Positions 13,721 through 23,438 of a stretch of 49,904 nt of DNA are shown here, piece after piece. Location of the stretch: the NCBI GenBank assembly GCA_018714725.1, contig DVMZ01000172.1, positions 1-49,904 on the forward strand, given 5' to 3'. This DNA comes from Candidatus Scatosoma pullistercoris. GTDB lineage: Bacteria; Bacillota; Clostridia; Christensenellales; Borkfalkiaceae. The notes under the pieces are model-generated. The model made no database searches, had not been told where the DNA came from, and saw nothing but the letters and a program-made list of their open reading frames with translations. The position numbers and the translations under genes were made by a program. Numbering within the stretch: position 1 is the stretch's first letter; every line of letters begins with the position of its first letter.

Positions 13721-14728
13721 TCATCGCTTCCCTGCCTTCCCGAAAAAGAGCTTTGCCGTCACCCGTTTCAGCGCGGAGGGAGAGGTGAGTTCCCCGCTCT
13801 TGACGGCGCTGACCGCCCCGTAGATATCCGTATAATATCCGAGAACGCTCCCGCGGGCAAACCCCGCCGCCTGTTCGCGGCTCTTTTTCACCGCGTATTC
13901 CTTCATGCCCAGCGCCGCCGCCACTTCCCGGTCGCTGCCGCCGGACACGGAGACTTCGTAAAGGCTGCGGAAATGATAGCACAGCGCGTTGAGAAGCGAA
14001 ATTTCGTCGAAGCCCTTGGAGGACAGCTCGCCGAGAATGCGCGCGAAAGCCGAATAATTTTTTCGGGATATCGCATTCGACAATTCGTAGATTTTATATT
14101 CCGAATCGGGGTACACGGCTTCGTCCACGACGGCGTCCGTCAGCCGCGAAAGGCCTTTGGCCTCGCAGTAAATCAGGAGTTTTTCCGTCTCTTTGGCGAT
14201 GCGGGACATGTCGTAGACGCAATAAGCGGCAAGTTTTCCGCAGGTCACCCCGTCGACGTATACGCCCGCGCGCTTACAGGTGACGTAAATCCATTTTTTG
14301 ATCGTCTCTTCGTCCGAGCGGCCGCAATCCACAAACACGACGCCGGGCTTTCTGGAAAGCGCCGCGCATCCGGCCTTTCCCTTGCCCGCGTTGTCGATGA
14401 TGAGCACCCCGTCCTCCGGCGGATGTTCAAAAAGATCGCGGAGATAGTTTTCGTAGTCCTTTTCCGTCGGATAAAATTCGGAAACTTTTACAAACCGTTT
14501 TCCGCCGGAAAAAGAGAAACTGCTCAACGCGGAAAGGAGGGTTTTGAGTTTGTCCCCTTTGAGCGCCCCGCCGTCGAACGCCGTATAATCCAGCACGGGA
14601 TCTTTGAGAAACCGGTCTTTGAGAAGCGCCGCTCCTCGTTCCCGGAAATACGTTTCCTCCCCTTCAAAGAGATAGACGGGCCGGGCGCCGTTTTCGTCCG
14701 TGAATTTTCTGAAATCGACGTATTTCAT
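13721..14728 (-). CDS. holA: DNA polymerase III delta subunit
   Basis: 335 aa. N-terminus ...RPVYLFEGEETYFRE... is typical of HolA. It directly follows comEC, as in many Firmicutes. Confidence 0.85.
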   Translation of the reverse strand: MKYVDFRKFTDENGARPVYLFEGEETYFRERGAALLKDRFLKDPVLDYTAFDGGALKGDKLKTLLSALSSFSFSGGKRFVKVSEFYPTEKDYENYLRDLFEHPPEDGVLIIDNAGKGKAGCAALSRKPGVVFVDCGRSDEETIKKWIYVTCKRAGVYVDGVTCGKLAAYCVYDMSRIAKETEKLLIYCEAKGLSRLTDAVVDEAVYPDSEYKIYELSNAISRKNYSAFARILGELSSKGFDEISLLNALCYHFRSLYEVSVSGGSDREVAAALGMKEYAVKKSREQAAGFARGSVLGYYTDIYGAVSAVKSGELTSPSALKRVTAKLFFGKAGKR

Positions 14729-14818: not shown

Positions 14819-16432
14819 TCAGCCCGCGACAATCCCTGCGGAAAACACAAAAGCGGCCAGAAAAACCGATGCCGCCGCAAATTTTCCCCGTTTTCCGAAA
14901 TTGATTTTTCCCGACAGCACGACAAAAAACGCATAATACGCCGCCAAAGCCCCGCCCGACAGCTTTCCGATCCCCGCCGGCGCAAAATCCGCGGCATGAA
15001 AAAGCAGCAATGCCGCCGACCAGAGCACGGAAGGGATATACAGCAATACGGAAGCGGCGGACGGCAAGAGACAGGCAAGCAGCACGATCGCCAGCAACGC
15101 CGCAAAAACCGCCCCGATCAAAGGCACGAACAGACAGTTGAGAAACAGGCTCCACACCGACAGATAGCCGAATGCGTTGAGGAGCAACGGCGCGGTTCCG
15201 ACCTGCGCCGAAAGGGTGACGGAGAAAAAGGAGACGGCGTCCCTGCGAGCCTTCGCCGCGATGCTCAACGGCTTGTCCTCCGCCTTCGGACTTTTTCCGG
15301 GCAACAGCGCGTCCAATCCGTCCCGGAAAAAACGGGAAAACAGACCGATGGACAAACAGGCCGCAAACGAGAGCTGAAAGCCGAGATCAAATACCTGTAC
15401 GGGATGAACCGCCAGCAGGACAAGCGCCGCTATCCCCGTATTCTCCACGAGGTCGGACTTTATCCCCAGCAAAAAAGAAGCGTACAGCACAAAGCACATC
15501 ACCGCGGCGCGGACGACGGATGCGGAAAAGCCGCAGACGCCCGCATAGAACAAAATGAAAAGGGATACGGAAAAAAGGCGGGCGAGTTTCGGAAGGCCGC
15601 GCAGCCCGGTCTTTTCCGTCAACATACGGACAAACGCATACAGGGCGCCGACATGCAATCCCGAGACGGAAAAGATGTGCGCGATGCCGCCGTAACGCAC
15701 GTTTTCGAGCAATCCCGCCTCTATTCCGGAGGTGTCTCCGATGAGCAGTGCATACGTCACCGCGGCAGACTGTTCGTCCATGGCGCCGTACAGCGTGTCC
15801 CGTATCCTGCGCCGGACGTTGAGAAACACATTTTCCGATCTGTCCGCCACGGCCAGCGATTCCGCTTCCGCCCGATAAAAAATGCTCTTTTCCACATTTT
15901 CGCTCCGGAACCCGTAATCGTCGGAAAGGGCGAGGTCGGTCTCCACCCTTCCCGTCAGCACCACGCGGTCGGCAATCTTCACCCGATCGGAAAATTCCGC
16001 AGGCAGGGAAGCGACGAGTTTGCCGGAAACCTTCTCTCCGTCCACGGAAAGCCCGGACAGGAGCAGCCGCGCTCCGCCGGAGAATTCCTCTTTTTCCTCC
16101 ACCGTGCCGACCACGACGCATTCGCCCGAAATTCCGGGCGCGGCGGAAAACGCGCGCACTTCCTCCCAAAAAGAAAGTGCGCCCCACCACGAACAGAGCA
16201 GAAGAGCAAAAGCCGCCAGGACGGAACGGAGTCCCCTCCCCGGGAAAAAGACGGGCGCCAGGACGGGCACGAGAAGCCCGGGCAACAGCCAAAGACAGGA
16301 CGCGCCGGAAAACAGCCGCGCCCGGGCGAATAAAATCCCGAGCGCGAAAAACGCCGCCGCAAACAAAGCGGGACGGAAATTGAACACTCTCCCGTCCTGT
16401 CTGTTTTCGGCAGCGTCTGAAAGTTTCTTCAT
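14819..16432 (-). CDS. comEC: ComEC/Rec2-family DNA-uptake channel protein, short form (no metallo-beta-lactamase domain evident)
   Basis: 537 aa. N-terminal OB/DUF4131-like region, then a polytopic competence domain (...HIFSVSGLHVGALY...). The ORF ends within the TM region. Confidence 0.85.
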   Translation of the reverse strand: MKKLSDAAENRQDGRVFNFRPALFAAAFFALGILFARARLFSGASCLWLLPGLLVPVLAPVFFPGRGLRSVLAAFALLLCSWWGALSFWEEVRAFSAAPGISGECVVVGTVEEKEEFSGGARLLLSGLSVDGEKVSGKLVASLPAEFSDRVKIADRVVLTGRVETDLALSDDYGFRSENVEKSIFYRAEAESLAVADRSENVFLNVRRRIRDTLYGAMDEQSAAVTYALLIGDTSGIEAGLLENVRYGGIAHIFSVSGLHVGALYAFVRMLTEKTGLRGLPKLARLFSVSLFILFYAGVCGFSASVVRAAVMCFVLYASFLLGIKSDLVENTGIAALVLLAVHPVQVFDLGFQLSFAACLSIGLFSRFFRDGLDALLPGKSPKAEDKPLSIAAKARRDAVSFFSVTLSAQVGTAPLLLNAFGYLSVWSLFLNCLFVPLIGAVFAALLAIVLLACLLPSAASVLLYIPSVLWSAALLLFHAADFAPAGIGKLSGGALAAYYAFFVVLSGKINFGKRGKFAAASVFLAAFVFSAGIVAG

Positions 16433-16594
16433 CGGTGTCGCAGGCTCTCCCGCCTCGTTTTGTCTTTCGCAGAATCCGCGCCGCGGAACGCCGCGGCTTG
16501 CGGCAAGAAGAAGTTCCGTGTTTCCGGGAACTTTTCCGGCTTTTCCGGAGAAGCGGGTTCTGTCTGCTCCGGCCCGTCCCTTGCTCCCCCCCCG

Positions 16595-19500
16595 TCAGGC
16601 GAGGGAAATCCGATCGGAAACGGAACGCACAAACAGGCCCTTTTCTTCGCCGAGCGTAACGCAGTTGTTCACATACACGGCGAACTGATCGGTGGGTTTG
16701 GTGATGCGGAACAGATTGCAGACGATCACCATGACCTCGTCCATATACAGAGCGACTTTATCTTCCAGCGCGCTGCGGATAAGCGCCACAACCTCGTAGG
16801 GGGTGAAATCCGTCTCGTTCTTGCGGAGCGTATCGCCCGTCTCCACGCGATACTTGTCAAAACCGATGTTTTTATCCGTTTTCCGGTAATATGCCGTTCC
16901 GAAAATCCGCTCGTAACGGAACCCGCAAAGCGCGACGAGCGCCTGCATCCGCGCGTCGATCTTCGCGCCGTATTTGACGATTCCGAGGCCGGAAAGGCAC
17001 CTTCTGACGAGGAAATCGTAAGAAATGGGCTCTTCCGCCGCAACGATGGCTTTCAGCCGGGAGATGATTTCGGCATCGTTTTCTCCCGACGTGACAAAAG
17101 TGGCATTCTCAAACCGCTGTTCGAGCGCCGCCGCTTTATACGGTTTCTTACTGCGGTTGAGACCCGTGCCGCCCCGTTTGTCCGCCCCCGTCAGCTTATC
17201 GAGCAGATCTTTGATCTTTTTGATCTCGCGTTTGGGGTTGTTGTAATAGTTGATGGAATAGACGCGGACGACGTTCCAGTTGTTGCGTTTGAGCGTCTGA
17301 ATCTGCAATACGTTGCGGTCCTTGACGGAAAAGGCATTGGGGCCGTCGCACATGACCGCGAGAATAAACCGGTGACGGTTCTTGGGATCGATGACGGCGA
17401 CGTCGATCTTGAAATCGGACACGCCGACGTCGTAACGGCAGTCGTAGCCGTACGAAGCGAGCTCTTCGGCGATGTATTTGCCGATCCCCGGCTTTTTCCG
17501 GACGAGATATTCGGAAGAAATCGCCAGCGTCGTGCGGCCCTTTTCGGCAAATTCGAGGAAGGCTTTCAGCCCCGCCACGCCCTTGGAACCCGTCTTGGAC
17601 AGGTCGATCATCGCGCCCGTCATCGACGAGAAAATCACCATTTCCTCGCGGGCGCGCGAAACTGCGACGTTCAGCCGCCGCCAGCCGCCGGCCTGGTTGA
17701 GCGGACCGAAGTTCAACGAAACCCTGCCCGTCTTATCCGGCCCGTAACAGACGGAAAAGAGAATGACGTCCCGCTCGTCGCCCTGCACGTTTTCGAGGTT
17801 CTTGACGAAGATGGGCTCCTCGCGGTCGTAGGCGGGGCCGTCCAGTTTTTTCTCGGCGATCAACGCCGTCAAACGTCGTTCGATGTACTCCTTCTGCACG
17901 TTGCTGAACGTCACGATCCCGATGCTGGATTTTCTCAGCGCCGGATCGGACAAACGGCGGATGACTTCCGCCACCAGCGCGTCCCCTTCCGCCTTGTTGC
18001 GCTTGGTGAACCCGCGGTCGTACACGCCGTCCTCCACGCGCACGAATTTCACACGGCTGTCCAGCGAATCCGGCGACGGGAAGGTGCACAGCTTGTTGCC
18101 GTAGTACATGATATTGGAGAAAGCGATCAGGCTTTCGTGCTTGCTCCGGTAGTGCCAGGTCAGGTGCCGCTGCGGAATACCGAGGGCGAGGCAGTCGTCG
18201 AGAACGCTTTCCATGTCCTCGTTTTCGAGGTTGTCCTCGTCCACGTAATTGGTGTTGAAAAAGGCCGTCGGCGGCAGCTGTTTGGGGTCTCCGACGACGA
18301 TCGCGCTCTTCGCGCGGGCCAGGGAGCCGATCGCTTCCGCGGTGGGCATCTGCGAAGCCTCGTCGAAAATCACCATGTCGAACATGCCGTTTTCCGCCTG
18401 CAGATACTGCGAAACGGTGATCGGACTCATCAGCATACACGGGGCCACGACTTTCAGAAGTTCGGGAATTTCCTCAAACAGCTTGCGAAGCCCCATACCG
18501 CGCAGATTGCTCTTGGCCAGCCGCCCGAAGTTGACCACTTCGAGGCTTAAACTTCCCTCCGTGGAAGCCGTGGGCAGGCGGGAAATCAGCCGCGCGCGGA
18601 TCTCCTCCCGCGTGAGCCTTGCAAAATCGTCCAGCGCCAGGCGCAGCGATTCCGTCTCCTCTTCCATGAGCGTGGCGGAAAACCGGGACAGCAACGGATC
18701 AAGGGGTATGTTCGTCTGCAAAAAGTTTTTGTAAATATTCTTTTCAAAACTGTCGACGATGTTTTCGCTGGTCACCGACCCGTTTTCCAGCGCGTCGGTC
18801 ATGAAGGTCAGCCCCGCCTCGTTCAGCTTCTCCGCCGTCGCGCGGTACATGCACCAGTTGCCCAGCATATCGATGTTGTCGATGAGCGCGCCCGCCTTGG
18901 AAGTATAATATTCCAGAACGTCCTCTTCGGGCACTTTTTTCCGGTCCGCGGCCGTGACGGACAAAAAGCTCTCTTCCGCCGCATAGAAACTCGACACCGA
19001 GCGCAGCAGCCCTTTGAGCACCGGCCGGGTATAGCCGTTCGCCGCGCGGATACACATGCTGTTGAAACTGTCGGCGTTATAATCCATGAACAGCCGCCCG
19101 CAGATATCGTGCAAAGCGTACAGGTCGGCGAGGAATTGCTTTCTGCCGTCGAAGAAATCCACTTTCCCGAACGCGCCCGTGAAATTCCGAGACAGCCGGG
19201 TATTGGTGCGGATGCGGTCCATCGCTTCGTAAATCTCCGTCACCGTCTGCAGATGCTTGACGACATCCTCGCTCTTCATCGGCGATACGGCGACTTTCGA
19301 GAGCTTTTTTGCCACCGCCGAAGCGGTTTTATCCCGCTCGTAATCAATTCTTCCCGTGTCCAGCCAGGCGCCCAGTTCCCTGTATTCCCTGCCGATATCC
19401 ACCAGTTTCTTAAAACTTCTGAAATAGGCGTCCAGGCAGACGTCCAGCCGCTTGTTGGCATTGAAAAACGCGTAGAATTCCTCTTCGTTTTCCCGGAAAT

Positions 19501-22252
19501 ACCGGTTCAGCGTCCCGCCGTCCAGCAATTTTGCCGCTTCCGTCAGCAATTCCAGCTTTTTCCGCGTGAGCGTGCTGATCCGCTGGCGATAGAGTTCCAG
19601 AAAGAGCGCGACGTAATTTTTCAGGTGCTTGATCTCCGCGATCACGACTTCGGAGGAGCAGTAAATGGCGTCCCGCAGATCGCGCGAATATTCGGTGAGA
19701 TTGACATTGGCGAACGGGGAATTGTACACGCCGCCGCACTCTTTCGCCGCCGCGGCCGCCTGCACCATCATCGTTTCGTACTCCTCGATCTTCTCCTTTG
19801 TGAGGCTGTCGTAGAAAGTACTCTCGATGTTCATGATGTCCGGCGCGTTTTTATTGCGCAGACAGATGAGCAGCGCCTCGTACACCGATACGCCCAGACG
19901 GCGCTTTTTATGCAGGGCCGCCGACGGTTCCGCCAGGTCCTTTTTCAGCTGCGCGACGGACGCGCTCTTTTCCGAAAGACTGACGTTTTCCTGCGCCCCG
20001 GCAAGGGCCAGGGTTGCGGTGAGCTTCTGCAGCACTTCCGCTTTGTTGGTCTTGTTGGAATGCAGTTCGAGACAGAAATCCCCCAGGCCCAAAGCGTCCA
20101 GACGCTTTTTGACGACGGACAGCGCCGCCTGTTTTTCCGCAACGAACAGCACCCGTTTCCCGTCGTTGAGCGCATTTGCGATCATATTGGTGATCGTCTG
20201 GCTTTTGCCCGTTCCGGGCGGGCCGTGCAGGACAAACGTCTTGCCCGTCTGCGAAAGCGCCACCGCTTCCCATTGCGAGGAATCGGCCGGCAGGGGCATC
20301 AGCGTCTGCGCAGGCGCGCATTCGTCCTCTTTCAGTTCGACGTCCTTCGTATCGGAAATTTCGCAACGGTTGTGCAGAAGGGAAGAGATGAGTTCGTTTT
20401 TCGCGAACACGTCCATATTCTTGCGCAGGTCCTGCCACATCTGATACCGGGCGAAAGAAAAGGCCGCGATATAAACGTCGTCAAATACCTGCCAGTCCTT
20501 CATGTTGACGACTTCCATGCGGACCATCGCCAGAATTTCGGAAATTTTCAACCCCTGCACCGCGCCGTCCAGGCCGCGGATATCGATGTTGAATTCCTGT
20601 TTGAGAAATTCGAGCAGGGTGGAATTGACGGAAAATTCCTCGTCGGTGGGCGAAACGGCATACCCGACCCCGCCCTTGGCCTTTTTCAGGACGACGGGCC
20701 TGAGAACGAGCGGCGCATAGTTGACTTTGCCGTCCTCGCGCGAATACCAGCGCAAAAATCCGAGCGCGAGATAGAGAATTTTCGTTCCCGATTCCTCGTC
20801 CGCCTCTTTGCTCCGCTTGATCAGCCGGTTGACCGTCTCATTGAGGACGACCTCTTCCGAAAAGGTGCGCATGACCCCGCCCGAAACTTCCAGGGCGATG
20901 AGTTCGCGCATGCTCTTGATTTCCTGCGCCGCGCCGAAAAAGACTTTGCGGCGGGTGATTTCCGATACTGCCGCGGTGGCGCCCGCCAGCCGCATTTCAT
21001 CCTTTTCCTCCAACGCCGCCAACGTGGCGTCCGGATCGGCGGACAGGACGTGCAGGACCATCTTTTCGGGCGGGAAATTGAGCAATGTATTTTTCAGGGA
21101 AAGATCGAGCAGTCTCCGTTCCCACTGTTTGTCCTTGGTCTGTTTGCCGTCGAGGCTGAGTTTCTTCGCCTCGGTGAGCATTTTCGGCGCGGCGTCGGGA
21201 GACATATCCTCTTCCGACAGAATTTCATAGCCTTTGAGATTGCGCGCGCGGAGGGGCAACGGCCGGATATGCGCGATCCGGCAACGGCGGATGTCCACAT
21301 ATTTGTCGTAATATCCGCCCGCGTTCAGACGTTGCAGGAAATGCGCTTCCGAAGTGGAATAGGCGACGTTCTTGTCCGAAAACAGGTCGTTGATGTCAAA
21401 ACAGCTGAGATTGTTGATCCCGTCGGAAACGTATTTTCCCAGTCTCTGGATATCGTCCGACACCGTATCCATAAAACAGCTGTCATACAGCCAGACGCCG
21501 CAGGTGACTTCCTTTTCCCCCAGGACAATGACGGGATGCAGGCCGAGATTCTCGACGCAGGCCGAAAAGAGCAAAGCCAGTTCCAGCGGAGTGGCCTTGC
21601 GTTCCGCCAGCAATTTTACGCCCGCGCCCGCTTCCGTCGGAACGGAAATATCCGATTCTTTCCGCTCGAAAGCATAACGCCGGATACAGGCATACAGCGC
21701 CGCCGCCGTCTGTCTGATCGCGTTTTTGTTGTTCCCCTCATAGCCGCCGAGTTCATTTTCGACGCCCCATTTTTTCAGCTGCGCCGCGATCTCCGCTTTC
21801 AGCCGCTCGCAATCGGCGAGTTTCGGCCGCACAAAAGAAGCGAGCAATTCCGCATTTCCCGAAGTCCCCTGCCAATAATCGAACGGCAGCGCGACGACTT
21901 TCAGCCGCGCGGAAGCGAGCAGCTGCTTGTCCTTTCTGAGCTCAACGGAAATTTCCTCTTCCCGCACTTCTTCCAGGCCGACAAAGTACAGCGGGGAAAG
22001 TATGTTGCCCAGCTCCACTTCCACCGTGCTTTCAAACGGAATTTCTTCCAACGGCTTGACGCAGGACACCAAAAGTCCATGGTCGTTGGTGACGGAAAGA
22101 ATCAGATCGGCAATCGCATCCGTTCCGCCGTTCTCAATCCGAAGGGTCGTAAAAAGAGGTGCCTGCGTGAAATAATCGGCATACGACACCACTCCCAGCG
22201 CTTCCGCACTGAGCGTGATCCCGTCTTCCAGTCTCTGCTTTTTCTGTGCCAT
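16595..22252 (-). CDS. Giant (1885 aa) fusion protein: uncharacterised N-terminal module, DUF4011-like region, Upf1/DNA2-like SF1 helicase, restriction-endonuclease-like module, DUF3320-like tail
   Basis: Longest ORF in the window. DUF4011-like: WERRLLDLSLKNTLLNF, ILYLALGFLRWY, APLVLRPVVL (aa ~375-600). Helicase: GPPGTGKSQT (aa 677-686), VIFDEASQM (1294-1302), VVGDPKQLPPT (1319-1329), HYRSKHESLIAFSN, VQGDERDVILFS, RRLNVAVSRAREEM. REase-like: YGYDCRYDVGVSDFKIDVAVIDP...ILAVMCDG...WNVVRVYSINYY (aa ~1595-1685). C-terminal ~170 aa are DUF3320-like. Confidence 0.9.
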   Translation of the reverse strand: MAQKKQRLEDGITLSAEALGVVSYADYFTQAPLFTTLRIENGGTDAIADLILSVTNDHGLLVSCVKPLEEIPFESTVEVELGNILSPLYFVGLEEVREEEISVELRKDKQLLASARLKVVALPFDYWQGTSGNAELLASFVRPKLADCERLKAEIAAQLKKWGVENELGGYEGNNKNAIRQTAAALYACIRRYAFERKESDISVPTEAGAGVKLLAERKATPLELALLFSACVENLGLHPVIVLGEKEVTCGVWLYDSCFMDTVSDDIQRLGKYVSDGINNLSCFDINDLFSDKNVAYSTSEAHFLQRLNAGGYYDKYVDIRRCRIAHIRPLPLRARNLKGYEILSEEDMSPDAAPKMLTEAKKLSLDGKQTKDKQWERRLLDLSLKNTLLNFPPEKMVLHVLSADPDATLAALEEKDEMRLAGATAAVSEITRRKVFFGAAQEIKSMRELIALEVSGGVMRTFSEEVVLNETVNRLIKRSKEADEESGTKILYLALGFLRWYSREDGKVNYAPLVLRPVVLKKAKGGVGYAVSPTDEEFSVNSTLLEFLKQEFNIDIRGLDGAVQGLKISEILAMVRMEVVNMKDWQVFDDVYIAAFSFARYQMWQDLRKNMDVFAKNELISSLLHNRCEISDTKDVELKEDECAPAQTLMPLPADSSQWEAVALSQTGKTFVLHGPPGTGKSQTITNMIANALNDGKRVLFVAEKQAALSVVKKRLDALGLGDFCLELHSNKTNKAEVLQKLTATLALAGAQENVSLSEKSASVAQLKKDLAEPSAALHKKRRLGVSVYEALLICLRNKNAPDIMNIESTFYDSLTKEKIEEYETMMVQAAAAAKECGGVYNSPFANVNLTEYSRDLRDAIYCSSEVVIAEIKHLKNYVALFLELYRQRISTLTRKKLELLTEAAKLLDGGTLNRYFRENEEEFYAFFNANKRLDVCLDAYFRSFKKLVDIGREYRELGAWLDTGRIDYERDKTASAVAKKLSKVAVSPMKSEDVVKHLQTVTEIYEAMDRIRTNTRLSRNFTGAFGKVDFFDGRKQFLADLYALHDICGRLFMDYNADSFNSMCIRAANGYTRPVLKGLLRSVSSFYAAEESFLSVTAADRKKVPEEDVLEYYTSKAGALIDNIDMLGNWCMYRATAEKLNEAGLTFMTDALENGSVTSENIVDSFEKNIYKNFLQTNIPLDPLLSRFSATLMEEETESLRLALDDFARLTREEIRARLISRLPTASTEGSLSLEVVNFGRLAKSNLRGMGLRKLFEEIPELLKVVAPCMLMSPITVSQYLQAENGMFDMVIFDEASQMPTAEAIGSLARAKSAIVVGDPKQLPPTAFFNTNYVDEDNLENEDMESVLDDCLALGIPQRHLTWHYRSKHESLIAFSNIMYYGNKLCTFPSPDSLDSRVKFVRVEDGVYDRGFTKRNKAEGDALVAEVIRRLSDPALRKSSIGIVTFSNVQKEYIERRLTALIAEKKLDGPAYDREEPIFVKNLENVQGDERDVILFSVCYGPDKTGRVSLNFGPLNQAGGWRRLNVAVSRAREEMVIFSSMTGAMIDLSKTGSKGVAGLKAFLEFAEKGRTTLAISSEYLVRKKPGIGKYIAEELASYGYDCRYDVGVSDFKIDVAVIDPKNRHRFILAVMCDGPNAFSVKDRNVLQIQTLKRNNWNVVRVYSINYYNNPKREIKKIKDLLDKLTGADKRGGTGLNRSKKPYKAAALEQRFENATFVTSGENDAEIISRLKAIVAAEEPISYDFLVRRCLSGLGIVKYGAKIDARMQALVALCGFRYERIFGTAYYRKTDKNIGFDKYRVETGDTLRKNETDFTPYEVVALIRSALEDKVALYMDEVMVIVCNLFRITKPTDQFAVYVNNCVTLGEEKGLFVRSVSDRISLA

Positions 22253-22289
22253 GATCGGTTTTGCACTCCGCCTGAATAATTTCCCTTTT

Positions 22290-22318
22290 ATTATACACTT
22301 TTTTTATTGAAAAATCAA
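22290..22318 (-). promoter_or_regulatory. Predicted sigma-A-type promoter of the giant helicase gene
   Basis: Minus strand TTGATT (22318-22313), 17-nt spacer, TATAAT (22295-22290), ~38 nt upstream of the ATG at 22252. Anchored on the stop of track ORF 19109..22279. Confidence 0.55.
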
Positions 22319-22431
22319 CCCCTGCAAGGCTTTTTTCTGCGAAAGGTCCGACAAATGTCGTTTTCTCTTTTCTTCCCCGGAATCCGGCATTTTCCGCCTT
22401 AATTTTTTGCCGCTTCCCCGTTTTTTTATCT

Positions 22432-22464
22432 AAAAAATCCCCTTTCCTGTCGCCGGAAACGGGA
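22432..22464 (-). terminator. Second intrinsic-terminator-like hairpin between the XRE gene and the helicase promoter
   Basis: Arms 22438-22447 / 22455-22464 pair at 9 of 10 positions, with a 7-nt loop. The minus strand then reads UUUUUU (22437-22432). Confidence 0.4.
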
Positions 22465-22555: not shown

Positions 22556-22579
22556 AAAAAAAGCGGCGCCCCCCGCGCC
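22556..22579 (-). terminator. Intrinsic terminator of the XRE gene
   Basis: 5-bp GC stem (22565-22569 / 22575-22579), C5 loop, followed on the minus strand by U7 (22562-22556). It starts 5 nt after the XRE stop. Confidence 0.5.
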
Positions 22580-22583
22580 CCTT

Positions 22584-22784
22584 CTACGTCAGAATTCCGT
22601 CAAACGTCTCATCGAAAATTTCACAGAGCTTCGCCAGCAGAAAAAAACCGGGTTCGCACACTCCCTTTTCCCAGGCGCTGATCGTCCTCTGGTCTACCCC
22701 CAACGCCCCTGCCAGCTGCTTCTGCGTCATTCCCGCACTCCGCCGCAAAGCCCTCAGATTTTCGGCAAATTTTATGGCTTTCAT
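22584..22784 (-). CDS. XRE-family helix-turn-helix transcriptional regulator (66 aa)
   Basis: MKAIKFAENLRALRRSAGMTQKQLAGALGVDQRTISAWEKGVCEPGFFLLAKLCEIFD... is a canonical HTH_3/Cro-C1 pattern. Confidence 0.9.
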   Translation of the reverse strand: MKAIKFAENLRALRRSAGMTQKQLAGALGVDQRTISAWEKGVCEPGFFLLAKLCEIFDETFDGILT

Positions 22785-22810: not shown

Positions 22811-22817
22811 TTTTTAA

Positions 22818-22846
22818 TTGACATACCAAAAATATTGGTGTATAAT
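22818..22846 (+). promoter_or_regulatory. Perfect-consensus sigma-A promoter TTGACA-17-TATAAT, divergent from the XRE gene
   Basis: TTGACA 22818-22823, 17-nt spacer, TATAAT 22841-22846. Anchored on track ORF starts 22818 and 22835. Confidence 0.6.
22825..22839. promoter_or_regulatory. Palindrome ACCAA-AAATA-TTGGT (candidate XRE operator 2) inside the promoter spacer
   Basis: Same ACCAA-N5-TTGGT architecture as operator 1. It fills the spacer between the -35 and -10 of the plus-strand promoter. Confidence 0.45.
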
Positions 22847-22856
22847 AAAGAAAGTC

Positions 22857-23234
22857 ATGATACTATCGATGAAAGAACTTTTGTTTTCCAGGACAAAGAC
22901 TACACGATTCTTCATTGGTTTTCCCGTACGGCCGTCACAGGGCGTGCGGGAAATTTTTATTTTCGGGGACGAAAATCCGACCCGAAAAAAACAGAGCCGA
23001 CGCGGCAAAGCAGTAAGCGGAAAAGGATCGGAGCAGCCGGAAACAAAAAGGCGGAACGGAAACACGGCACGGACAAAAAACGCGAAACCGGTATCCGAAG
23101 CGGAAAAGCCGAAGCCGGAAACAAAACGGGTTACGGGACAGCGCAAAGCGGTCGACGGGGCAAAAGCCGCGGCGTCCGAAGCGCAGAGCCGAACGAAAAA
23201 ACGGGCGGATTCAAAAAACGCAGCCGCCGTTTGA
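22857..23234 (+). CDS. Hypothetical 125-aa protein with short N-terminal segment and long Lys/Arg/Glu/Ala-rich low-complexity tail (start uncertain)
   Basis: First ATG of track ORF 22818..23234 downstream of the consensus promoter. Tail: ...TRKKQSRRGKAVSGKGSEQPETKRRNGNTARTKNAKPVSEAEKPKPETKRVTGQRKAVDGAKAAASEAQSRTKKRADSKNAAAV. Codons (AAA, GAA, CCG, GCG, ACG, CGG) resemble those of neighbouring genes. No SD. The ATG is only ~4 nt from the predicted transcription start. Confidence 0.3.
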   Translation: MILSMKELLFSRTKTTRFFIGFPVRPSQGVREIFIFGDENPTRKKQSRRGKAVSGKGSEQPETKRRNGNTARTKNAKPVSEAEKPKPETKRVTGQRKAVDGAKAAASEAQSRTKKRADSKNAAAV

Positions 23235-23384
23235 CCGGTCATTCATGCGGCAGGCCTCTCCCGGCGTCAGCGTCGGGAACGCCTTGCTTCCGGCGTCAGA
23301 CAAAACGTGCTTTTACGGAACGGCAGGCTTCCGATCCCGTAAACCGGATGAATATGCAACAAACATCCATTTTTTATACAATTT

Positions 23385-23438
23385 TACTGAAAAATCGGTA
23401 ACGGATGCCCGCCGGCCATCATTGGTCGGCGGGCATCC
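23385..23438 (-). terminator. Intrinsic terminator of the rimP...nrnA operon
   Basis: 12-bp stem GGATGCCCGCCG (23403-23414) / CGGCGGGCATCC (23427-23438), extendable by 3-4 bp. The minus strand then reads GUUACCGAUUUUUCAG. Anchored on track ORF 23405. Confidence 0.65.

Follow-up and report, generated by a model that had tools for sequence, protein, structure and literature searches.

A DUF4011/SF1B helicase/Vsr-like nuclease from a family labeled anti-phage is held at one chromosomal locus in Candidatus Scatosoma and may serve nucleic-acid surveillance

Can a gene from a family that databases label as single-gene anti-phage systems be a settled part of the chromosome rather than accessory cargo? 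The question is raised by a 49,904-nt stretch of Candidatus Scatosoma pullistercoris DNA (GenBank assembly GCA_018714725.1, contig DVMZ01000172.1, positions 1 to 49,904; hereafter the window). Its longest open reading frame (ORF), at 16595..22252 on the minus strand, starts with ATG and encodes an 1885-residue product with a DUF4011 domain, an SF1B helicase and a Vsr-like nuclease; we call it the helicase gene. It lies between nrnA and comEC-holA. The reading that we favor, at a probability of roughly 55%, is that it encodes a chromosomally fixed, constitutively expressed nucleic-acid surveillance enzyme in Scatosoma and related gut Clostridia.

Results

The helicase gene belongs to a large catalogued family

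Sequence comparison places the 1885-residue protein in a large helicase-nuclease family already listed in databases, where its members are labeled as single-gene anti-phage proteins. The first-pass annotation, made from the nucleotide sequence, had called the gene an orphan with no assigned function and suggested kinship to helicase-nuclease immunity proteins. The kinship holds over the full length, to the database-labeled single-gene anti-phage families ProA and PDC-S37 and in part to Hhe, and at family level these labels make "no assigned function" out of date. Nor is the gene an orphan: a word-indexed search found at least 800 homologs, the top 120 of them full length at 69-100% identity, and an exhaustive search with the C-terminal 1200 residues as query gave 7,672 clusters (50% identity) at E<=1e-30, mostly of 1,800-2,300 residues.

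The protein scores 1506.6 bits against the NCBIfam equivalog model "anti-phage protein ProA" (NF058533; cutoff 1500), the best stretch aligning residues 24-1690 with model positions 2-1709 of 1903 and a second, separate stretch also aligning. It is colinear with ProA nearly end to end, including an N-terminal module that the PDC-S37 and Hhe models do not cover, and the same domain order (N-terminal module, helicase, nuclease, tail) is found in relatives P0127, P0141 and P0149, of which P0127 and P0141 align as far as model position 1902. Membership nevertheless appears marginal. The 1963-residue representative P0149 scores 2040 bits versus 1461-1507 for the window's clade, and the window protein stands at the very edge of the family, with 32-35% identity to plasmid-borne relatives; those relatives are plasmid-borne or flanked by insertion sequence (IS) elements, whereas the window gene is chromosomal, syntenic and core-like.

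The PADLOC models, which the first-pass annotation had named as a check, gave a near-full-length match to PDC-S37 (1.2e-299, 995.8 bits, residues 375-1868 to model positions 11-1533 of 1550), spanning the DUF4011, helicase, nuclease and tail regions, and a partial match to Hhe (3e-142, residues 1121-1684 only). The PDC-S37 model lacks the N-terminal 375-residue module, and the defense-island association of that family is not seen in the Scatosoma clade; our literature search found PDC-S37 in no paper. Hhe, which is reportedly due to Gao et al. 2020, likewise combines DUF4011, an SF1 helicase and a Vsr-like nuclease in one large protein. The Hhe model of NCBIfam (NF042953) reaches 711 bits (3e-213) against an equivalog cutoff of 2000 and aligns residues 991-1733 only. 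Because the score is far under the cutoff and the N-terminal half does not align (the alignable part being C-terminal, residues ~990-1730), the window protein appears to represent a different subfamily. Judged by sequence, Hhe is the best available functional analog: it acts as a single-gene helicase plus Vsr-nuclease defense against lambda, T3, T7 and PhiV-1, with a nuclease point mutant unprotected (bioRxiv 10.1101/2022.06.16.496414), and is apparently triggered by phage DNA-metabolism functions (bioRxiv 10.1101/2024.10.10.617714).

Both catalytic modules look intact

The gene and its parts are as follows (REase, restriction endonuclease; wHTH, winged helix-turn-helix).

16595..22252, minus strand: coding sequence of the DUF4011 / SF1B helicase / Vsr-like REase / wHTH-tail protein (ProA / PDC-S37 family), from the ORF, its translation, Pfam, PADLOC and NCBIfam matches and 45 full-length orthologs (1875-1889 residues) in species representatives
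21128..22252, minus strand: N-terminal module, residues 1-375, a beta-sandwich (~12-121) plus an alpha/beta domain (~134-345), without Pfam family
20603..21115, minus strand: DUF4011 domain, residues 380-550, Pfam PF13195
20033..20332, minus strand: N-terminal part of helicase domain 1A, with Walker A motif GPPGTGKS and K683; AAA_11, AAA_30 and AAA_19 matches at residues 657-729
18443..20032, minus strand: all-helical insert of ~530 residues (741-1270) between helicase motifs I/Ia and II, without Pfam family
17618..18442, minus strand: helicase motifs II-VI, the end of domain 1A plus domain 2A; AAA_12 at residues 1351-1543, Viral_helicase1 at 1279-1329
17183..17482, minus strand: Vsr-like REase-fold domain REase_MTES_1575, residues ~1591-1690, Pfam PF18741
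16598..17182, minus strand: C-terminal tail, residues 1691-1885, DUF3320-like / winged-helix-like, from a sub-threshold DUF3320 score and the AlphaFold2 (AF2) model

As the first-pass annotation had it, this is the largest ORF of the window, and the positions that it gave for GPPGTGKSQT (677-686), VIFDEASQM (1294-1302) and VVGDPKQLPPT (1319-1329) are exact. The domain chain that it proposed is borne out by Pfam for DUF4011, AAA_11/AAA_12 and REase_MTES_1575; the DUF3320 assignment falls just short of the gathering score of 25 (PF11784; 20.9 bits for the whole protein and 24.5 bits for the tail alone). In the AF2 model, tail residues ~1726-1790 form three helices followed by two strands (predicted local distance difference test, pLDDT, 75-88), a fold consistent with the DUF3320 family.

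The DUF4011 match covers the entire model (106.7 bits versus a gathering score of 22.2, 1.5e-30, positions 1-158 of 158), and residues W377, L381, D383, N388, L390, F393, E486-E487 and G489 are unchanged in relatives at 36-63% identity. The SF1B motif set is full, comprising Walker A, DEAxQ and motifs III-VI together with AAA_11 (2.7e-18) and AAA_12 (2.3e-16). Motifs II-VI read DEASQ (1297-1301), GDPKQLPPT, HYRS, VQGDERD and RRLNVA.SRAR. K683, D1297/E1298, Q1325 and R1533 are invariant, and G677-T686, F1296-Q1301 and G1321/D1322/Q1325/P1327-T1329 are invariant even in relatives at 36-63% identity. In the PDB, only the Upf1-like helicases IGHMBP2 and Sen1 match by sequence (1.5e-11 and 2.4e-05), and because of these and of a match to NCBIfam TIGR00376 (5e-30) we assign the motor to the Upf1-like SF1B group. 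Only the core motor motifs are held in common with IGHMBP2 and Sen1/SETX, which are eukaryotic RNA/DNA helicases without DUF4011, the 530-residue insert, the Vsr nuclease or the wHTH tail.

The REase_MTES_1575 match (PF18741, residues 1594-1682) scores 66.6 bits against a gathering score of 38.2 (2.1e-18). DUF559-type Vsr domains presumably carry a Glu and a His that the window motif VMCDGPNAF lacks. A degenerate nuclease was ruled out: the consensus of 150 diverse representatives itself reads ILCDG...RDR...W, and the window protein keeps every strongly conserved position, including D1617, D1636, G1637, D1645, R1646 and W1659, that is, all likely-catalytic positions, each at least 86% conserved in that set. 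The helicase and nuclease modules both look intact, and the protein is apparently a full-length, catalytically intact member of the DUF4011/Upf1-like SF1B helicase/Vsr-like nuclease/wHTH family. The prototype of its nuclease family, MTES_1575, combines HEPN, transglutaminase, SF1 helicase and novel Vsr REase domains with two wHTH repeats that overlap DUF3320 (Anantharaman et al. 2013, PMC3710099). The window REase matches the Pfam family built on MTES_1575 and the tail is wHTH-like, but Pfam detected no HEPN domain in the 1885-residue protein, and its N-terminal alpha/beta domain is only putatively transglutaminase-like.

Neither the N-terminal 375 residues, searched even at E<=10, nor the ~530-residue insert gave a Pfam match, and a PDB profile search with the N-terminal module returned 0 matches. 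The module falls within the span of the ProA model and outside the PDC-S37 and Hhe matches. AF2 modeled residues 1-660 with a mean pLDDT of 80.6, about 90 over residues 10-345, as a beta-sandwich (12-121), an alpha/beta domain (134-345), a disordered linker (355-386) and the DUF4011 fold. Foldseek related this N-terminal fold weakly, and by the beta-sandwich only, to transglutaminase N-domains (TM ~0.13), and the positions expected for the transglutaminase Cys and His read T/S/N and G across the family. For residues 640-1839 the model was of low quality (mean pLDDT 59) and had no Foldseek match in the PDB at E<=0.001. The insert is predicted to be helical, with pLDDT 70-88 in parts, and is the most divergent and least alignable region relative to ProA-type and Hhe-type proteins.

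Two long ORFs overlap the helicase gene on the plus strand, one of 1056 residues at 19109-22279 and one of 696 residues at 16460-18550; the helicase gene is GC-rich and codon-biased, and most likely both are its shadow ORFs.

The gene occupies the same slot across the clade

Pfam identifies the flanks of the helicase gene as nrnA (DHH/DHHA1) upstream, closing a rimP-nusA-infB-rbfA unit, and comEC-holA downstream, in agreement with the first-pass annotation, which had placed the gene between the end of the nrnA operon and comEC-holA. Three homologs (85, 74 and 70% identity) occupy the same slot, in the order rimP-nusA-ylxR-infB-rbfA-nrnA, helicase, comEC-holA, and none has an XRE-family gene there. 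To guard against ascertainment bias, we scanned GTDB species representatives with nrnA, and not the helicase gene, as the anchor. The resulting sample of 80 loci comes from Candidatus Scatosoma and related uncultured gut Clostridia; all relatives are contigs of metagenome-assembled genomes, with genes called by tblastn and simple ORF finding. The loci divide as follows.

Helicase gene downstream of nrnA: 55
nrnA followed directly by comEC-holA, with no helicase remnant: 6
At least 5 kb of other sequence downstream: 8, of which 5 are Christensenella/Catabacter-like outgroups
Contig too short to judge: 11

The helicase gene is therefore present in 55 of the 61 nrnA-anchored loci that keep nrnA-comEC-type synteny. 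The six absences represent at least three separate lineages in a rough neighbor-joining tree of rbfA, nrnA and infB, a distribution from which the gene is taken to be ancestral to the clade and occasionally lost (at least three times). Its GC content (0.56-0.58) equals that of the surrounding genome. Synteny and sequence together argue that in this clade the gene is ancestral, vertically inherited and fixed between nrnA and comEC, and not a mobile island gene.

Selection on the gene is at housekeeping level

Forty-six orthologs are 1875-1889 residues long, and gaps occur in just 53 of the 1901 columns of their alignment. More than 50% of positions in the helicase and REase modules are invariant, among them the motif II-VI region; conservation is 0.90 in the N-terminal part of domain 1A and 0.73-0.84 in all other regions. 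Mean protein identities to the window and median ratios of nonsynonymous to synonymous substitution rates (dN/dS) are listed below; each median is drawn from 9-14 close species pairs per gene, dS being ~1 in many of them, and is robust to a few outliers that are alignment artifacts.

Helicase: identity 72.8%, dN/dS 0.064
infB (C-terminal part): identity 82.3%, dN/dS 0.059
rbfA: identity 73.4%, dN/dS 0.077
nrnA: identity 66.8%, dN/dS 0.107
holA: identity 64.5%, dN/dS 0.052
comEC: identity 43.6%, dN/dS 0.211

The helicase gene is under housekeeping-level purifying selection across 5.6 kb, and its conservation exceeds that of nrnA in 44 of 45 loci, of holA in 34 of 34 and of comEC in 42 of 42. 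One ortholog (L036 4240-9894) contains a single in-frame stop codon, through either recent pseudogenization or faulty assembly.

A conserved promoter and a probable operon with comEC and holA

The control elements and the two downstream genes are as follows.

22290..22318, minus strand: sigma-70-type promoter TTGATT-17-TATAAT, 10/12 consensus matches, 37 nt 5' of the ATG
22565..22579, minus strand: intrinsic terminator hairpin 3' of the XRE gene, GGCGCGGGGGGCGCC then GCTTTTTTTG
14819..16432, minus strand: comEC, 537 residues, Pfam DUF4131 and Competence domains only
13721..14728, minus strand: holA, DNA polymerase III delta subunit, Pfam DNA_pol3_delta_C, the next gene after comEC

The near-consensus promoter that the first-pass annotation assigned to the gene is present at 22318-22290 (minus strand). 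A TTGATT/TTGCTT-17-TATAAT element lies upstream of 47 of 50 orthologs, often with a TG-extended -10, and is the sole part of the window's upstream gap common to relatives. Two terminators had been proposed to shield the gene from the XRE-family gene upstream; our terminator scan supports one clean terminator (22579-22565) after XRE, and the second, near 22430-22460, is just an imperfect hairpin with a T-run, read by eye.

The description of the gene as stand-alone does not survive comparison across the clade. At 38 of 47 loci no more than 60 nt separate its stop codon from the start of comEC (median 18 nt), and the 162-nt spacer of the window shows no T-tract terminator and no RNA structure (z = -0.23). 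Because of these short gaps and the terminator-free spacer, the gene is most likely the first cistron of a helicase-comEC-holA unit and not an insulated cassette, and comEC is probably co-transcribed with it. holA is syntenic in all relatives with enough sequence. No metallo-beta-lactamase nuclease domain was detected by Pfam in the 537-residue ComEC of the window.

The XRE gene is a local neighbor in a variable insertion spot

Control of the helicase gene by the XRE-family regulator had also been suggested.

22584..22784, minus strand: XRE-family helix-turn-helix gene, 66 residues, Pfam HTH_3, a lineage-specific neighbor

The XRE gene is not a conserved partner, since it accompanies the helicase gene, between nrnA and helicase, only in the window and in the sister locus L005 (82% amino acid identity, with a DNA match too; the L005 contig ends at the helicase start), and since four helicase-less species carry a small XRE-family gene in the helicase slot, ~40 nt 5' of comEC and ~42% identical to the window XRE (L015 11103-11273; L018 11136-11318; L039 5040-5210; L044 8706-8888). 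XRE is absent from L001-L003 and from the other helicase-bearing nrnA-anchored loci.

The low-GC spacer between nrnA and the helicase gene is a site of insertions whose cargo varies by species. Enlarged gaps in ~18 species hold major facilitator superfamily (MFS) transporters, a Toastrack+HAAS pair, a Metallophos phosphoesterase, a trypsin-like peptidase and TMEM164 proteins. One Scatosoma species has a 9.7-kb low-GC (0.34) insertion between nrnA and the helicase gene (L023 2460-12190), probably an integrative element with defense or toxin cargo. Its products are a large serine recombinase that includes DUF4368, one protein each with sigma-70 region 4, DUF6273 and TIR_2, and a Bro-N+Fic protein. 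An upstream defense island as a general feature was ruled out, the cargo being unrelated to defense with L023 (TIR + Fic) as the sole exception. The spot loosely recalls the setting in Pseudomonas aeruginosa, where all isolates carry a large DUF4011 gene that flanks the defense hotspot cDHS1 (Johnson et al. 2023, PMC10250203). Like the window gene, the P. aeruginosa gene belongs to the core rather than the accessory genome and adjoins a region of varied insertions, a likeness of setting; that hotspot is rich in defense systems, in contrast to the mostly non-defense cargo of the Scatosoma locus.

Distant relatives lie near mobile elements and restriction genes, not near comEC

Relatives at 28-49% identity occur on 600 plasmid records, including those of Klebsiella, Ralstonia and Acinetobacter, and their neighbors include IS110 and IS5 elements, integrases, an HsdR-like helicase, an MmeI/Eco57I-type methylase and a reverse transcriptase. 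Carriage by phages is limited to one near-full-length match among 50,697 phage records; 17 IMG/VR contigs bear family members, several with integrases, and look like proviral or island regions. The comEC linkage is specific to the Scatosoma clade, since comEC, holA or nrnA lies near the helicase gene in 0 of 38 long distant-relative loci, and a deep functional link between helicase and comEC was for that reason rejected as anything beyond a minority hypothesis.

A Bacteroides homolog at 33% identity and 90% coverage (L084, NZ_OY725931.1, "Bacteroides finegoldii plasmid 29") has rpsA on one side and, on the other, a convergent gene of the reverse transcriptase family. Because this "plasmid" also carries glutamine synthetase and trxB besides rpsA, it resembles a piece of chromosome. 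A 240-kb metagenome contig (L094) shows the same rpsA / helicase / reverse transcriptase order.

Discussion

In the surveillance reading that we favor, the conserved strong promoter would drive the helicase gene constitutively, with probable read-through into comEC-holA. The SF1B motor would load on foreign or aberrantly replicating DNA and translocate along it, and the Vsr-like nuclease would cut the DNA so engaged; the wHTH tail would add DNA binding, and the N-terminal beta-sandwich and alpha/beta module, DUF4011 and the large helical insert would gate activity. The substrate, the trigger and a role against mobile genetic elements in Scatosoma we infer. The gene would on this account be a "core" innate-immunity or genome-policing gene and not an accessory one, for which the P. 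aeruginosa DUF4011 gene (PMC10250203) offers a precedent by analogy.

Several observations weigh against this reading. Strict synteny, a near-absence of indels and a dN/dS equal to that of a translation factor are atypical of defense genes, which usually turn over and diversify. The immediate neighbors are housekeeping genes, the upstream variable spot holds mostly non-defense cargo, and the genomic marks by which defense genes are recognized (defense or mobile neighbors, patchy horizontal spread) are seen only among the distant relatives and not in the clade. The first-pass annotation had itself held that an invariant core position in all relatives, with no enrichment near defense or mobile genes, would speak against an immunity role. 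Much of that picture is what we find, with the same slot in 55 of 61 loci, housekeeping-level selection and no defense island, although the locus is not strictly invariant, the gene having been lost at least three times. Promoter conservation may, at least partly, serve the essential downstream holA rather than the helicase gene. The family labels, too, leave room: the protein clears the ProA cutoff by 6.6 bits only, P0121, which represents its clade at 50% identity, falls short at 1461 bits, literature searches turned up no primary paper for ProA, whose label comes from the database alone, and to our knowledge PADLOC PDC entries are guilt-by-association candidates, PDC-S37 not being validated. 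An anti-phage role for the window protein and its close relatives is a suggestion drawn from homology.

Much of this evidence would also suit a defense-family enzyme exapted for housekeeping, whether to process or police DNA taken up through ComEC, to resolve replication/transcription conflicts or R-loops, or for repair, and we keep this as the main, though less probable, alternative. Upf1-like SF1B helicases elsewhere resolve such conflicts or R-loops, and IGHMBP2 and Sen1 are the closest PDB sequence relatives of the window protein. Fixation at one locus in 55 species and conservation above that of nrnA, holA and comEC, at a housekeeping-level dN/dS, fit exaptation, as does the lack of defense-island context; the close spacing to comEC, with no terminator in the window, and a window ComEC lacking a detectable metallo-beta-lactamase nuclease domain also count in its favor, but the link to comEC-holA is confined to the clade, and the adjacency may be a frozen accident. 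The clean losses with comEC-holA intact mean that the gene is dispensable, all that is known of the named relatives concerns phage defense, and we know of no competence or repair pathway that uses a DUF4011/SF1B/Vsr/wHTH architecture. It seems doubtful to us that the gene has been domesticated as the promoter-proximal member of a helicase-comEC-holA operon and acts on ComEC-entering DNA or replication-associated structures, as a transformation gatekeeper or genome-maintenance factor and not (only) as an anti-phage effector.

Two further explanations have little in their favor. An orphan, insulated, horizontally acquired single-gene defense cassette under the upstream XRE repressor, which would draw on the gene's own promoter, the terminator after XRE, the clear homology to anti-phage families and the variable low-GC gap next to nrnA, is largely refuted and highly improbable: XRE accompanies the gene only in the window and L005, GC content matches the surrounding genome, and by our reconstruction the clade inherited the gene from its ancestor and keeps it in synteny, neither insulated downstream nor an orphan. 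It is very unlikely as well that the gene is selfish or addictive, or a decaying remnant, kept by hitch-hiking with a promoter that drives the essential holA and not for a function of its own. comEC-holA may depend on the promoter, clean loss of the gene does occur and L036 has an internal stop; yet a dN/dS of 0.064 across 5.6 kb, catalytic domains more than 50% invariant and a constant length in 46 species are beyond what hitch-hiking can account for, inactivating substitutions are not seen in most orthologs, and helicase-less species still express comEC-holA without the helicase promoter.

What is unusual here is the core-like, probably operonic setting of the gene, the kind of system being already known. 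With the same architecture frozen at one locus in ~55 species, the clade offers a natural contrast to plasmid- and island-borne members, and together with the P. aeruginosa core DUF4011 gene it suggests that part of the family may serve core genome policing and not accessory immunity. This bears on mechanistic work on Hhe and ProA and on "core" defense genes, in a family of more than 7,600 clusters at 50% identity. For annotation it counsels caution: a match to a defense-family hidden Markov model does not by itself mean a defense island.

Other features near the locus

The ~770-bp nrnA-XRE stretch of the window matches no fetched relative, XRE (in L005) and the helicase promoter (more widely) aside, and looks like a small inserted module of XRE and a divergent gene. 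A perfect 12/12 sigma-70 promoter, TTGACA-17-TATAAT, at 22818-22846 (plus strand) points away from XRE. Downstream of it, an ORF at 22835-23401 (plus strand) encodes 188 residues rich in Lys, Arg and Gly, has no Pfam match and overlaps an ORF at 22814-23242 (minus strand). A second variable spot in the otherwise syntenic block was found in L003 (18489-22973), where three tandem Exo_endo_phos genes are inserted between holA and the gene for the diadenylate cyclase DAC.

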